Shown: positions 36-62,231 of the stretch, in pieces
How the letters are laid out: every line of letters starts with the position of its first letter
Position numbering within the stretch: the stretch's first letter is position 1
From: Phage NC-B
Sequence record: MK310183
Strand: one strand, 5' to 3'
DNA length: 64,000 nt
Notes under the pieces: generated by a model
The model's input: only the letters and a program-made list of their open reading frames with translations
The model's database searches: none
Told to the model about the DNA's origin: nothing
Made by a program: the position numbers and the translations under genes

Positions 36-160
36 TACGGGTAGGAAATCACTGGTTAGATATACATGGGTAGATAATCAATGTCTAATATTAATGGGTA
101 GGGTATTTATGGGTAGGCGTACCACTGAACGCAGGTAGGGCAGGGCTTAGGGCTTAAAGG
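36..160. repeat. cluster of short direct repeats, core GGGTAG(G), plus tandem GGGCTTA x2
   Basis: GGGTAG at 39-44, 68-73, 96-101, 111-116; AGGTAGGG 133-140; GGGCTTA at 143-149 and 150-156. Confidence 0.5.
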
Positions 161-310
161 CTGATTGATTTCCTAAAGGCAATTGCATTGGTAATAACCC
201 TTTTTTAAATGAGGACTCCCCCCCTTTTAGGAAACGCGCTCGGAGAGGCTAGGTCCATCCGGTCAAATTGAAATTTTAAACTGTTATATATAAGCATAAG
301 GAATAACTTA

Positions 311-475
311 ATGTGGAAATTGAAGATGATTATTCGTCAACTTAAATGTCAACATGAATACTACCCGATACGAATATCGAGAGGTGATGAACGGTTACAC
401 GCTTATTACAAGAGTACATGGAGATGCGCAGACTGTGGTAAGGTTAGGAATAGTAAATGGGTGGACAAGCCTTAA
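311..475 (+). CDS. hypothetical small Cys-rich protein (54 aa), not in ORF track
   Basis: ATG at 311 with AAGGA 9 nt upstream; open to TAA 473-475; KCQHE...CADCGK cysteine pattern. Confidence 0.25.
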   Translation: MWKLKMIIRQLKCQHEYYPIRISRGDERLHAYYKSTWRCADCGKVRNSKWVDKP

Positions 476-600
476 CATGATATGGCCTTAATGGGTATGC
501 CTTAATGTGGGGTAGCCTTTATGAAGTCCCCTTTACATCAGCGTACATGGGTTAGTACACGGGTGGGCCTTTAGATGAGTACGCCTTTATGGGTTGATCA
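455..600. repeat. degenerate tandem repeats, unit about 14-16 bp, core GCCTT(A/T)A followed by TGGGT-like
   Basis: GCCTT(A/T)A at 469, 485, 499, 515, 567, 583 with 14-16 bp spacing, interleaved with ATGGGT/GGGTAG-like cores. Confidence 0.5.
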
Positions 601-626
601 CTCTCGTTTATCAGAGGAGAACAAAT

Positions 627-887
627 ATGTTTCTAGACTTTTTATCAGAGGTACTTCCCTACTTCCGTACTGAGAAATGTGCATTTGTATTTGATGAAGG
701 GGAGGAGTCAATGACTTGTTTGGGTAGATTAGTAGACCTAGACGACGATGAAGATTTTGATGCTACGATGGACATTAGTTCATTGGGCTGGTTGTACATG
801 CGCTGCTTTGTAAGTTACAAGGCTGAAACGTTTAAAGATTATCGTTATGGTGATAACGTAAATACTGAAGGAGAGAATGATGAATAA
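627..887 (+). CDS. hypothetical acidic protein
   Basis: ORF 594..887 trimmed to internal ATG 627 with GAGGAGA SD 7 nt upstream. Confidence 0.5.
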   Translation: MFLDFLSEVLPYFRTEKCAFVFDEGEESMTCLGRLVDLDDDEDFDATMDISSLGWLYMRCFVSYKAETFKDYRYGDNVNTEGENDE

Positions 888-1545: not shown

Positions 1546-1573
1546 TTGCCTCCTCTCGTGGGAGGCTTTTTGT
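1546..1573 (+). terminator. rho-independent terminator
   Basis: GCCTCC(1548-1553)-loop-GGAGGC(1561-1566) then TTTTTGTT. Confidence 0.65.
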
Positions 1574-1601
1574 TATAACGATAATGTAGAAGGAGTATAA
1601 G

Positions 1602-2069
1602 ATGTTTGGAGAAAAAGGAGAACTCACGCCTGCACAGGTAGCTGAGATTACAGGAAGACTGCCCGGAGTAACGGAAGAACTTGAATCCAAGGGCATGGAA
1701 CCAAGCACAGGGAAGTTCACTAAAGGTAATAAATTTGGACGTCCCAAAGGTAGTAGAGGTAAATTGACACAGCTCATGCTCGATCGTGTTGCTGCTAGTC
1801 ATCTGTCTCCTGATGAAGTGTTGATTCAGATTTATGAAGATCCAAATATTCCACCCGATCTTAGATTCAAGGCTGCAAGTAAAGTCGCTGATCTGGTATA
1901 TCCTAAGGCAGCTTCTGTTGAGGTTAAGATTGAGGAAGAGAATGTAATCAATGAAGAGTCACTGAACGCACAGATTCGAGACTTCTTGACTGGTGCACTG
2001 AAAGTGGATGTGCTACCTCCAGAGGACTCTGAGGACGCTGAAAAGGGGGAGGAAGCGGACGAGAGTTAA
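1602..2069 (+). CDS. putative terminase small subunit
   Basis: 155 aa ORF immediately upstream of large terminase; HTH-like segment LTPAQVAEITG; basic KGNKFGRPKGSRGK stretch. Confidence 0.45.
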   Translation: MFGEKGELTPAQVAEITGRLPGVTEELESKGMEPSTGKFTKGNKFGRPKGSRGKLTQLMLDRVAASHLSPDEVLIQIYEDPNIPPDLRFKAASKVADLVYPKAASVEVKIEEENVINEESLNAQIRDFLTGALKVDVLPPEDSEDAEKGEEADES

Positions 2070-2123: not shown

Positions 2124-3677
2124 TTGGAGGAATATATGTCGTTAGATAAAGAAATCTATGAAGCTCTAACTGGAGACAAGTTGAGTATAGAGGAAAAGAA
2201 AGCTTTGCTCAATATGTTAAAAGAAAGGGACCAGTGGAGAAAATATAACAAGATGTTGGCTTTTAAAGCTTACGACTTTCAGAAGAAATTCTATGCAGCA
2301 GGGTTGAAGCATCGCTTTCGATTCCTGTGCGCAGCTAACCGTGTTGGTAAATCTTACAGCGAGGCATATGAGTTTGCTTGTCATGTCACAGGTCGCTATC
2401 CAACTTGGTGGACAGGTTACAGATTTAATCGACCCATATTGGCTTGGGCAGTAGGGATTACAGGGGACTCTACAAGAAAGGTATTGCAAAAGGAGTTGTT
2501 TGGAACACCTATCGGAAAGGATATGAATCTAATAGGAACAGGTGTTATTCCTCGTGATGCTATCGTATTGGACACGATAGAACGAGATGGGAATAAATTA
2601 CAGATTGTACAAATTAAGCATCAAAACGCGAGAGGCGAGTTTGACGGTTTAAGTACATTAGAGTTCCGTTCTACCCAACAGGGTGAACATACATTGATGG
2701 GTGCTACAGTTGATTATATTTGGCTGGACGAAGAAGATCCATATGAATCTATGGCAATCTTCTCTCAGTGCGTAACACGTACACTTACAACTAAAGGTTT
2801 AGTTACAATTACAGCTACACCAGAGAACGGTTTAACAGAGCTGGTGGATAAGTTTATGAAAGGTGAAGGAGATGAGAACACAGGTTCTCTGTATTTCCAG
2901 AATGCTTCTTGGTGGGATGCTCATGTAGATTTAGGTGGACATATCACTGACCAAGATATTAAAGACATGACTGAAGGTATTCCAACATGGCAGTTAGAGA
3001 TGCGTTCAAAAGGTATGCCGTTGCTTGGTTCTGGTTTGATTTATGACGTATCAGATGACATGATTAAGTGTGATCCCTTTGAGATACCTGATACGTGGAA
3101 ACGTGTTTGTGCTATTGATATTGGTATCGATCACCCGACAGCCGCTGTTTGGACAGCATATGATGCTAACACTGATACGATTTATGTTTATGACTGCTAT
3201 AAAGAAGGTGGGTTTACTCCGGTGTACCATGCACCAGCTATTAATGGTCGTGGTCAGTGGATTCCAGTTATTCTTCCTCACGATGCCGATAATATTGAGA
3301 AGGGAAGTGGTTCGTCTGTTGCTCAATTCTATAAGAATGCAGGAGTTAATGTACAGAGTGAGACCTTCTACAACAAGATTGGAATGGATGGTAAGAAGAA
3401 CTTCTTTGTAGAGCCGGGAATTACTGATATTCGTGAACGTATGATGTCGGGTCGTTTTAAAATCTTTAACATTGCATCTTGTGCTAAACTCTTTGAAGAG
3501 AAAGCTCGCTATCACCGTAAGGTTGGCAAGATTGTTAAGGAACATGATGACTTGATGGATGCTATGCGATATTCAGCTTGTTCTGTAACACATCGTGGAC
3601 GTAGTAAGCATGATGCTAGTTATGGTAGTTCATCGCTTTATCAAGACAATATTAACAGATGGAATCAGACCTACTAA
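2124..3677 (+). CDS. terminase large subunit
   Basis: Walker A-like CAANRVGKS, Walker B-like DYIWLDEED, C-terminal nuclease-like region; 517 aa. Confidence 0.9.
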   Translation: MEEYMSLDKEIYEALTGDKLSIEEKKALLNMLKERDQWRKYNKMLAFKAYDFQKKFYAAGLKHRFRFLCAANRVGKSYSEAYEFACHVTGRYPTWWTGYRFNRPILAWAVGITGDSTRKVLQKELFGTPIGKDMNLIGTGVIPRDAIVLDTIERDGNKLQIVQIKHQNARGEFDGLSTLEFRSTQQGEHTLMGATVDYIWLDEEDPYESMAIFSQCVTRTLTTKGLVTITATPENGLTELVDKFMKGEGDENTGSLYFQNASWWDAHVDLGGHITDQDIKDMTEGIPTWQLEMRSKGMPLLGSGLIYDVSDDMIKCDPFEIPDTWKRVCAIDIGIDHPTAAVWTAYDANTDTIYVYDCYKEGGFTPVYHAPAINGRGQWIPVILPHDADNIEKGSGSSVAQFYKNAGVNVQSETFYNKIGMDGKKNFFVEPGITDIRERMMSGRFKIFNIASCAKLFEEKARYHRKVGKIVKEHDDLMDAMRYSACSVTHRGRSKHDASYGSSSLYQDNINRWNQTY

Positions 3678-37669: not shown

Positions 37670-37841
37670 CTTGATAAGACTCTCCCCCAATCCTTGATGT
37701 AACAGCGACCGTCAACCCACTTGGTCTCTGATTTAAACTCTTTTGAGATTCGAGTCTCGCAATCTTCTTTACTGTAATCTCCAAGAGCATCCATCGCCCA
37801 AAGAAACAGAGCAATTACAATAGACCAGATTAGAAACTTCT

Positions 37842-38234
37842 TCATCGTATCACCAGAGGCTCTTCAGAGTATACAGGAGAGGCTATTTCTACCGGAGGTG
37901 CTGCTCTAAGGTCATTAAGCCTTACGCCCTTCAGCATACCATCTAGGTGGTCCATTTTAGGGATACCTACAGGGAAGTCATCAATCCAAACATCCACAAA
38001 GAAACCCAAGCTCTGGGTGACGGAATCCTTCTGAACACCGTTGCAAAAGATAACAGGAATATCTAGACTTGCTGCATCTGCTAGAAGCTCCTCATTTGAA
38101 TACCCATTGGGTTGAGCAAAACGATAGGTGACAATACGTACATCATGTCCACGAGATTTCATAAGACCTACAATGTGGGTCCACATCTCTTTGTCCACTG
38201 TAAAAGTATCATCATAATCTAAACCAATATTCAT
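37842..38234 (-). CDS. HAD-superfamily phosphatase (putative nucleotidase)
   Basis: N-terminal MNIGLDYDDTFT contains the DxDxT motif. Confidence 0.55.
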   Translation of the reverse strand: MNIGLDYDDTFTVDKEMWTHIVGLMKSRGHDVRIVTYRFAQPNGYSNEELLADAASLDIPVIFCNGVQKDSVTQSLGFFVDVWIDDFPVGIPKMDHLDGMLKGVRLNDLRAAPPVEIASPVYSEEPLVIR

Positions 38235-41829: not shown

Positions 41830-41862
41830 TATAAAAGAAAAGGCCACCCGAAATGGGTAGCC
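41830..41862 (-). terminator. rho-independent terminator
   Basis: minus-strand GGCUACCC-AUUUC-GGGUGGCC then UUUUCUUUUAU. Confidence 0.75.
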
Positions 41863-41867
41863 TTATA

Positions 41868-61868: not shown

Positions 61869-62231
61869 TTACTCTGATACCAGAAGGCCCAGAGATTTGC
61901 GAATGTAGTCAATACTACGGAAGTTTCGATAGTTCTCTTGGAAGCGCATCTTTTCAAACTCTGCTTCCTGAAGCTCTACCTCTGCTGCTTTATATCCCGA
62001 TAAAGCTAAACTCACCACATCCTGAGGCAAGACATTACGACGACGAATAAGATATTTATTCGCTTTTAATTTACCTTGTGCACGAGCCATTTTGGCCTTT
62101 GCCGCCTTGATTCCATGAGAAATCCAAAGCAGTTGCTGCTTCAGGTCTTCCTCGTCCATACCACCTAAATCGTTTGCTACTTTATGCAGCGTAGACAGGT
62201 TTACATGGCCTTTAATGGGGCGTAGGTTCAT
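61869..62231 (-). CDS. hypothetical protein
   Basis: 120 aa basic helical ORF. Confidence 0.5.
   Translation of the reverse strand: MNLRPIKGHVNLSTLHKVANDLGGMDEEDLKQQLLWISHGIKAAKAKMARAQGKLKANKYLIRRRNVLPQDVVSLALSGYKAAEVELQEAEFEKMRFQENYRNFRSIDYIRKSLGLLVSE

Follow-up and report, generated by a model that had tools for sequence, protein, structure and literature searches.

Repeat arrays of one motif family at the left end of a phiEco32-like phage genome, with a possible role at the concatemer junction

Introduction

In phages lambda, P1 and SPP1, short repeated sites flank the place where the DNA is cut, namely the R sites of lambda cosB, the hexamers of P1 pac, and the pacL and pacR boxes of SPP1. 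They are found no more than about 150 bp from the cut. Terminase has been shown to bind them, and their presumed function is the loading of a multimeric small terminase. Arrays of short repeats also occur in and beside the 160-bp terminal repeat of T7, and are said to have been named SRL and SRR by Dunn and Studier in 1983. Here, we describe arrays of short direct repeats at the left end of Phage NC-B (sequence record MK310183), of which one stretch of 64,000 nucleotides, referred to as the window, was analyzed.

The closest described counterpart of this locus is the 193-bp direct terminal repeat (DTR) of the Kuravirus phages phiEco32, SU10, YF01, and Paul. The phiEco32 repeat was mapped experimentally, according to the summary in the YF01 paper (PMC9965538), and the same ends were found in SU10 from read drop-offs, which also indicated blunt ends (PMC4281155), in YF01 from full-length nanopore reads (PMC9965538), and in Paul with PhageTerm. 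Published descriptions of the repeat cover a pair of T-tracts and a conserved region at positions 130 to 170 (PMC4281155, PMC9965538), the pair in SU10 being given as CCCTTTTTTA-10 nt-CCCTTTTTTA, 21 nt from the end of the repeat (PMC4281155). The terminal repeat of this family is thus already in the literature, and arrays of the T7 type have a decades-long history there as well; new here are the arrays of the family, the motif that they share, and a third array, none of which is described in the accounts of the repeat in PMC4281155 or PMC9965538.

Results

Two arrays built from one motif family

The first-pass annotation of the window had pointed to two repeat arrays at its left edge, and this was borne out by the shuffle test that had been named beforehand. 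None of 2000 dinucleotide-preserving shuffles of positions 1 to 620 reached the observed count of 5 for GGGTAG (mean 0.35) or 6 for GCCTTWA (mean 0.10). GGGTAG occurred 12 times and GCCTTWA 13 times on the plus strand of the whole 64 kb, and beyond the first 700 bp the densest stretch of 90 to 130 bp held a single copy (2 for the shorter CCTTWA). The largest clusters seen in 100 shuffles of the whole window contained 3 copies of GGGTAG and 2 of GCCTTWA. The two arrays are located as follows.

37-43, 66-72, 94-100 and 109-115 (span 37-116), all plus strand: array 1, four AYGGGTA(G) motifs
134-140, plus strand: degenerate GGTAGGG, followed by tandem GGGCTTA at 143-149 and 150-156
457-595, all plus strand: array 2, seven SCCTTWA units (469, 485, 499, 515, 529, 567, 583) interleaved with five AYGGGTD motifs (457, 491, 547, 559, 589)

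The GGGTAG cores of array 1 start at 39, 68, 96, and 111. The spacing of 25 to 35 bp given to them in the first-pass annotation fits the first 2 intervals, 29 and 28 bp, and fails for the last, which is 15 bp; Tandem Repeats Finder (TRF) reported periods of 29 and 15 for this array. The tandem GGGCTTA doublet was present as described, and relatives retain the block at 134-156 as GGCTTAGAGCTTA.

Array 2 contained the 6 exact GCCTT(A/T)A units that had been noted (469, 485, 499, 515, 567, and 583), to which we add a degenerate seventh, CCCTTTA, at 529. The distances between successive units were 16, 14, 16, 14, 38, and 16 bp, so that the regular 14- to 16-bp spacing holds except for one 38-bp gap, which contains 2 AYGGGT motifs. 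The units of array 1 read TTWATGGGTAG, and those of array 2 consist of GCCTTWA and then a (T)GGGTAG-like sequence. The 2 arrays represent a single motif family, (GCC)TTWA-YGGGTAG, a relationship that went unnoticed in the first-pass annotation, as did 2 inverted copies of the array-2 heptamer described below.

Two further motif matches in the window were treated as chance occurrences. The composite motif ATGGGTAGCCTT at 41853 belongs to a terminator hairpin for the minus strand, of which it makes up one arm; this hairpin, AAGGCCACCCGAAATGGGTAGCCTT at 41830-41866, is followed by a T-run on the minus strand and is likely to be an intrinsic terminator between 2 minus-strand open reading frames (ORFs). 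The other match, GCCTTTAATGGGG at 62208, lies inside a coding ORF. TRF additionally identified 2 copies of a 22-bp unit at 37839-37884 (TCTTCAGAGTATACACCAGAGGC).

A predicted terminal repeat that contains array 1

The first 1500 bases of the window matched 26 coliphage records with 83% to 95% identity, the closest being vB_EcoP-101114BS3 and UKE3, together with SU7 of the genus Suseptimavirus, and 90 records of the phiEco32 group (Gordonclarkvirinae) were reached with a more sensitive search. By sequence similarity, we assign the window to a phiEco32-like podophage of the Gordonclarkvirinae, with Suseptimavirus as the nearest genus. The window covers 64 kb of a genome of about 76 kb, the right end of which lies outside it.

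The phiEco32 record has identical 193-bp sequences at both ends, which begin with AGCCTTTC, and on the right the repeat ends halfway through a CTAG (written CT|AG). The octamer AGCCTTTC was present in 19 of 20 genomes, with GGCCTTTC in its place in Bas90. When the repeat was taken to extend from AGCCTTTC to CT|AG, its length was 192 to 194 bp in 10 Kuravirus-type genomes, in agreement with the published 193 bp, 249 to 250 bp in the window and 8 close relatives, and 280 bp in TH42. The boundaries in the window, AGCCTTTC on the left and ...GGCT|AGG on the right, align with positions 1 to 193 of phiEco32. Because of the homology of the octamer and the CT|AG, the terminal repeat of the window is predicted to be 1-250, which places array 1 inside and array 2 outside it. 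The suggestion in the first-pass annotation of a terminal-repeat region therefore holds for array 1, at the level of a repeat placed by homology, and not for array 2, which is located 207 to 345 bp past the predicted repeat, in a short left-end operon between gene 1 and gene 2. The elements of the predicted repeat, other than array 1 and the block at 134-156, are as follows.

1-250, no strand assigned: predicted left DTR, with AGCCTTTC at 1-8, CT|AG at 249-252, and the predicted cut between 250 and 251
155-161 and 174-180, minus strand: two inverted array-2 heptamers, TAAAGGC (GCCTTTA on the minus strand), within the DTR
198-229, plus strand: CCCTTTTTTA-10 nt-CCCCCCCTTTTA block with near-invariant columns, the most conserved part of the DTR

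Array 1 begins 36 bp inside the left boundary, and the first bases of the window, AGCCTTTC, are themselves a variant of the array-2 heptamer. One or 2 copies of the inverted heptamer were found in the terminal repeat of all 20 relatives examined. The T7 heptamer CCTAAAG occurs once, at 172-178, as part of the inverted GCCTTTAGG. Between the repeat and gene 1, a conserved A+T-rich block, TTTTAAACTGTTATATATAAG, is located at 274-294.

The Kuravirus repeat is homologous to that of the window, as indicated by the shared octamer, the T-tract block, and the CT|AG right boundary, and it too has 4 AYGGGKA motifs starting at position 37. The motif variant is ATGGGTA in the window and ACGGGGA in Kuravirus. 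An extra 57 bp in and around array 1 accounts for the predicted length of 250 bp in the window, as compared with 193 bp.

Several side observations concern the boundaries and the length of the repeat. Both boundaries fall in the middle of a CTAG, with ...GTGCT|AGCCTTTC or ...AGTCT|AGCC on the left, as seen in relatives, and ...GAGAGGCT|AGGTCC on the right. The CTAG at the right boundary is kept even where the flanks diverge, and exceptions on the left are TH38 (TAT|AG) and Bas90 (CT|GG). The tetramer is under-represented in the window, with 145 copies observed and about 238 expected from base composition. TH42 has gained a fifth in-repeat motif by duplication of a 31-bp unit (66-127 from its AGCCTTTC), which yields its predicted repeat of 280 bp, and across the group the repeat length (193, 250, 280 bp) tracks the number of array units. 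The gene-1-side end of the EK010 record has 40 nt before AGCCTTTC that mismatch its own right arm. The 275-bp "repeat_region" annotated in PAS59 was set aside, since it is an identical overlap across the junction, made up of 208 nt from the right arm and 67 nt from the repeat, and has the appearance of an overlap left by assembly. When IMG/VR was scanned for exact matches to the conserved core of the repeat, only 3 stretches were returned, 2 of which were phiEco32 itself.

Exact matches to the FtsK-orienting (KOPS) consensus GGGNAGGG were also noted within the predicted repeat, at 96-103 and 138-145; these are among only 5 on the plus strand of the window, and there are 0 on the minus strand. 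A KOPS role was rejected as probably incidental because the matches are not conserved in Kuravirus-type repeats.

Conservation of the arrays and a third array in relatives

In a comparison of 10 close relatives, 2 of 28 motif columns in array 1 were variable (7%), as against 30 of 79 surrounding columns (38%; Fisher's exact test, P = 0.0017). The Kuravirus set showed the same trend for this array, without significance. In array 2, 13 of 82 motif columns (16%) and 30 of 90 other columns (33%) were variable (P = 0.009); its left half varied by insertions and deletions (indels) of whole units, and its right half was colinear. These patterns of substitution indicate that the array motifs are under purifying selection. 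The number of SCCTTWA units after gene 1 ranged from 4 to 7 in every one of 20 genomes, and the 125 array-2 units that they contained took the form ATG-N5-SCCTTWA, with spacings of mostly 16 bp (39 times) and 14 bp (23 times). Both arrays are real and conserved.

A third array of AYGGGKA motifs, on the same strand, was identified 330 to 430 bp before the left boundary in 15 of the 15 relatives for which that sequence is available; the window stops short of the corresponding region of this genome, and the third array was seen in relatives only. In Kuravirus-type genomes it has the form ACGGGTA-29-ACGGGGA-29-ACGGGGA, and in Suseptimavirus-type genomes it consists of about 7 units about 15 bp apart, based on ATGGGTA and ACGGGTA. 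The motif variant of the third array is that of the array inside the repeat of the same genome, ACGGGGA in the Kuravirus type and ATGGGTA in the Suseptimavirus type. In the extracted stretches it is located at 1001-1105 in SU7, 1075-1175 in BS3, and approximately 958-1030 in phiEco32 (77012-77084 of the record). The relatives have a long A-rich tract (AAAAGAAAAAAGAAACGCTGAAAAAGAAAAG...) within about 70 bp after the third array, and many have GCCTTAA 20 to 27 nt before the left cut. With arrays before, inside, and after the repeat, the motif family brackets both predicted cut sites in the concatemer. Every AYGGGKA copy in all 3 arrays is on one strand, which fits a directional process.

Array 2 is also a recurrent insertion point for small ORFs. 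Lineage-specific ORFs have been inserted in or beside it in phiEco32 (gp2/3; 489-629 of the extracted stretch), TH38, MLP3, an IMG/VR contig (UViG), Bas90, and pEC-N1203. Behind each inserted ORF lies a new copy of the ...TTATTCAGAGGAG ribosome-binding region, a pattern suggestive of recombination at the repeats.

Another repeated sequence borders on array 2. The sequence TTATCAGAGG occurs 3 times in the window, all within 608-985, and sites at 604-618, 637-649, 972-986, and 988-1000 were listed for this repeat. The copies are located in the ribosome-binding region of gene 2, in codons 4 to 7 of gene 2, and inside gene 3, this last copy also making a small hairpin (971-987). In PAS59 and EK010, the last array-2 unit merges into the TTATCAGAGG sequence (CCCTTTATCAGAGGAG).

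Comparison with T7 and the LUZ24 group

We read the ends of T7 directly and found CCTAAAG or CATAAAG 3 times before the 160-bp repeat, 3 times inside it (at 17, 41, and 60), and 11 times after it, mostly with 13-bp spacing. T7 resembles the family studied here in being a podophage with a short DTR and in having a one-strand heptamer at 3 places, namely ahead of the repeat, irregularly spaced within it close to the left end, and in a regular array after it. The counts of 3, 3, and 11 in T7 compare with a pre-repeat array known from relatives, 4 motifs in array 1, and 7 units at 14 to 16 bp in array 2. The motifs themselves, AYGGGTAG and GCCTTWA in the window and CCTAAAG in T7, have no sequence homology, and the terminases belong to different families. 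Furthermore, the array after the repeat is set off from it by a promoter-like block and a gene in this family, whereas that of T7 abuts the repeat. The likeness is one of layout and not of descent.

The LUZ24 group (Bruynoghevirus) has a related large terminase, and the small terminase has been reported as a profile hidden Markov model (HMM) match to PaP3 TerS. LUZ24, with a repeat of 184 bp, contains CCYTTKATCC and GGGTAT/ATACCC before, inside, and just after the repeat, but these repeats are less regular than those studied here and occur in both orientations. The resemblance of the LUZ24 sequence CCCTTTATCC to CCCTTTA and GCCTTTA may be due to chance.

Salmonella phage 7-11, a distant relative with a large terminase that is 62% identical, was not used in the comparison because its physical ends are not annotated. 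This phage has repeats of its own in the 1.7 kb of non-coding sequence that precedes its packaging genes (840-1110 and 1500-1660 of the extracted stretch), consisting of (C/G)TGT(A/G)TGGATAG 3 times, GATGTTATAACGTAACA 4 times, and CCATCAAT/ATCAGTG units.

Genes around the arrays

The genes and signals downstream of the predicted repeat are as follows.

311-475, plus strand: gene 1, 54 amino acids, C-x-H...C-x-x-C, zinc-ribbon-like
613-619, plus strand: ribosome-binding site of gene 2, AGAGGAG
627-887, plus strand: gene 2, 86 amino acids, PHROG 12698, unknown function
1548-1566, plus strand: intrinsic terminator closing the left-end operon (genes 1 to 3)
1583-1588, plus strand: AATGTA hexamer, candidate core of a gp36-type late promoter before the packaging genes
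1602-2069, plus strand: putative small terminase, 155 amino acids, directly upstream of the large terminase gene
2124-3677, plus strand: large terminase, Pfam Terminase_6N and Terminase_6C

Gene 1 was intact in 20 of 20 genomes, with C13, H15, C39, and C42 invariant, and its substitutions were concentrated at the third codon position, for example 2/1/14 in the comparison with SU7. The protein matches PHROG 7696, of unknown function. The first-pass annotation had described this ORF as small, Cys-rich, and located between the arrays. It does exist, but with 3 Cys and 1 His residues it is better labeled zinc-ribbon-like, and it is not strictly between the arrays since its last codons and stop form the first array-2 unit (469-475). 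No recognizable replication or initiator domain was identified in genes 1 to 3 by comparison with PHROG and Pfam profiles.

The 2 terminase genes and the portal gene lie downstream of the arrays. The arrays can be said only loosely to be upstream of a terminase operon, as had been proposed, because 2 genes, the terminator at 1548-1566, and the separate AATGTA at 1583-1588 intervene. The gp36 promoter consensus has an AATGTA core centered near -11.5 (PMC12276001; the consensus is also given in PMC4281155), and the SU7 record annotates a promoter at the place homologous to 1583-1588. Since this hexamer follows the terminator, the packaging genes appear to have a late-promoter-like signal of their own, of which the arrays are not part. 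The idea that the arrays are sites for a sigma factor found no support, and a cluster of promoters for the phage sigma factor gp36 was rejected, because AATGTA is absent from both strands of 1-620, the nearest copy being that at 1583-1588.

A gp36-type promoter with its center at -11.5 would start transcription near 1597, about 5 nt before the ATG at 1602 and downstream of the AAGGAG at 1590-1595. With a predicted start so near to this ATG, the putative small terminase may truly begin at a later ATG. Many of its homologs are 117 to 140 amino acids long, and the PHROG match starts at residue 16.

A profile search of PDB with the 155-amino acid protein gave small terminase 7joq as the top match (E = 0.0028), with PaP3 TerS, 6w7t, at E = 0.15, in agreement with the HMM match of the small terminase to PaP3 TerS in the YF01 paper (PMC9965538). 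The AF2 model of the protein was poor (pLDDT 64, pTM 0.27), and a Foldseek search against PDB returned nothing significant. In PaP3, TerS forms a nonameric ring of helix-turn-helix motifs, with specific binding to its own cos DNA (PMC7672466). The large terminase is 38% identical to TerL of the LUZ24 group, which has short DTRs.

Discussion

A possible role in packaging

We tentatively favor the reading that the arrays are cis-acting protein-binding sites for the recognition and processing of the concatemer junction and for packaging, although we hold it with less than even confidence. The binder would be a multi-subunit protein, most plausibly a ring-shaped small terminase encoded at 1602-2069, which would engage sites with a period of about 15 bp or 29 to 30 bp. 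The bound arrays would then position the large terminase for cuts at the 2 CT|AG sites that delimit the repeat. From a start at the left end, beside the terminase genes, packaging would proceed to the right, so that arrays 1 and 2 would lie just downstream of the initiating cut, as cosB does in lambda. The right end, with its leftward gene block, would be packaged last and ejected first, and this gene block was assigned to the early class in the SU10 paper (PMC4281155).

Several lines of evidence speak for this packaging role. The clusters greatly exceed chance expectation and have no counterpart elsewhere in the 64 kb, and they are positioned at phiEco32-type ends, where the CT|AG rule reproduces the 193 bp. 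The motif columns are more conserved than the spacers, and the third array in relatives changes its variant together with the array inside the repeat. The heptamer of array 2 recurs at the terminus (AGCCTTTC) and shortly before the left cut in many relatives. As at cosB and pac, repeated sites thus adjoin the predicted terminase cut, with array 1 starting 36 bp in and a heptamer variant at the terminus itself. The 3-part layout of T7 and the repeats around the DTR of LUZ24 provide parallels, and readings at the RNA level and as sigma-factor promoters failed their tests.

Other observations weigh against a packaging role. Terminase binding is shown for the lambda, P1, and SPP1 sites and only inferred here; 2 cuts lie 250 bp apart in this family, and the arrays extend up to 345 bp away from whichever predicted cut is closer, or 430 bp in the case of the right-arm array of relatives, which is beyond the classical range of cosB and pac sites. 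Binding or packaging data on these sites were not found in the accessible literature, the primary phiEco32 papers being outside its scope. The 250-bp repeat of this lineage is predicted by homology only, the authors of SU7 report a 53-bp repeat, with caution, and the records of SU7, UKE3, and EK010 have only partial end duplications (53 nt in SU7 and UKE3, about 95 nt in EK010). The assignment of 1602-2069 as the small terminase is weak. The co-variation of motif variants comes down to essentially one split between 2 clades. Array 2 is transcribed, precedes a ribosome-binding site, and is a hot spot for the insertion of small genes, so that it could serve gene expression or recombination instead. 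The minimal packaging signals of T3 and T7 lie within or next to the repeat, and we know of no established function for the T7 arrays, on which our literature searches found nothing usable; the analogy therefore carries over no mechanism.

A bolder version is that the 3 arrays form one distributed packaging signal, in which one or more rings wrap or bridge the junction of about 700 bp through AYGGGKA motifs with a period of about 15 bp and GCCTTWA, and thereby set both CT|AG cuts. We regard this version as doubtful, though worth stating for what it would imply.

Alternative explanations

The sequence by itself does not decide between packaging, replication, and regulation. The arrays could be iterons of a replication origin, bound by a phage or host initiator, with a nearby A+T-rich tract that opens for replication or for re-initiation on the concatemer near the junction. 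Direct repeats in one orientation and with variable copy number are expected of iterons, and A+T-rich sequence is available in the form of AAAAGAAAAAAGAAACGCTGAAAAAGAAAAG... after the right-arm array of relatives and of TTTTAAACTGTTATATATAAG at 274-294 in the window. However, the A-rich tract is directly beside an array only at the right-arm array of relatives, the cores are just 7 to 8 bp long and spaced by 14 to 16 or 29 bp, as against 17 to 22 bp in helical phase for typical iterons, no initiator-like gene is present among the adjacent genes 1 to 3, and the replication genes are located in the other arm. T7, with the same layout, uses promoter-dependent origins elsewhere. Overall, we consider an origin function unlikely. 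A role as operators or enhancers for early transcription seems to us slightly less probable still. Here, a DNA-binding protein such as the gene 1 product would control promoters directed inward from both ends, or the expression of genes 2 and 3. The distance from array 1 downstream to the conserved promoter-like block ahead of gene 1 is about 150 to 230 bp, and the right-arm array of SU7 lies about 120 to 220 bp upstream of an annotated leftward early promoter, distances that are long for operators. A simple sigma-70 scan of 1-2200 gave no promoter-like site in 1-700, which leaves the conserved A+T-rich block as the only trace of a promoter before gene 1, and the lack of the gp36-type core in 1-620 counts in the same direction. 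Gene 1 is small and conserved, has the look of a metal-binding protein, and extends into the first array-2 unit, and regulators are often encoded beside their own sites; but its DNA binding is conjectural, and it is strongly divergent in Paul, pEC-N1203, and Bas94, which have nonetheless kept the phiEco32 motif variants.

It is rather improbable that the arrays are a neutral by-product of slippage or unequal recombination of a unit of about 15 bp near the genome end, without any sequence-specific function. Such processes would account for the changes by whole units, such as the 31-bp gain in TH42, the 57-bp difference between genera, and the 14- to 30-bp indels in array 2, and for the tolerance of array 2 to small-gene insertion (phiEco32, TH38, MLP3, UViG, Bas90, and pEC-N1203). 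They would not explain why motif positions are significantly more conserved than spacers, why the arrays are kept in 20 of 20 genomes from at least 2 genera, why the motif recurs at 3 separate places of the junction, or why the unrelated T7 has the same layout. The least credible of the alternatives, to which we give very little weight, is a role for array 2 at the RNA level, in which a structured leader or a series of protein-binding repeats in the early mRNA would control the translation of gene 2. It would suit the position of array 2 between 2 genes of one operon, ending at the ribosome-binding site of gene 2, and the split array of phiEco32, each half of which precedes a ribosome-binding site. 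The predicted fold of 460-630 was, however, weaker than that of shuffled sequences (z = +1.35; 181 of 200 shuffles had a fold of equal or greater stability), no relevant Rfam match was found in 1-2200 even at E<=1, the only hit being a sub-threshold match to Termite-leu at 2074-2163, and the same motifs also occur apart from annotated genes, within the repeat and, in relatives, in the right arm.

Implications

Several database records of this group begin at arbitrary positions or hold partial or spurious terminal duplications, and the invariant AGCCTTTC start together with the CT|AG end provides a simple rule by which these genomes can be oriented and their repeats annotated. Beyond annotation, the recognition and cutting of the concatemer junction in short-DTR phages are poorly understood outside T3 and T7, and to our knowledge no role has been assigned even there to the arrays that adjoin the terminal repeat. 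The many sequenced relatives of Phage NC-B vary in unit number, motif variant, and repeat length, which makes the question testable by comparison and by binding and packaging assays. If the 3 arrays did act as a distributed signal, the repeat length of 193, 250, or 280 bp would be fixed by the number of array units, and arrays of the T7 type would gain a general function across unrelated short-DTR phages.

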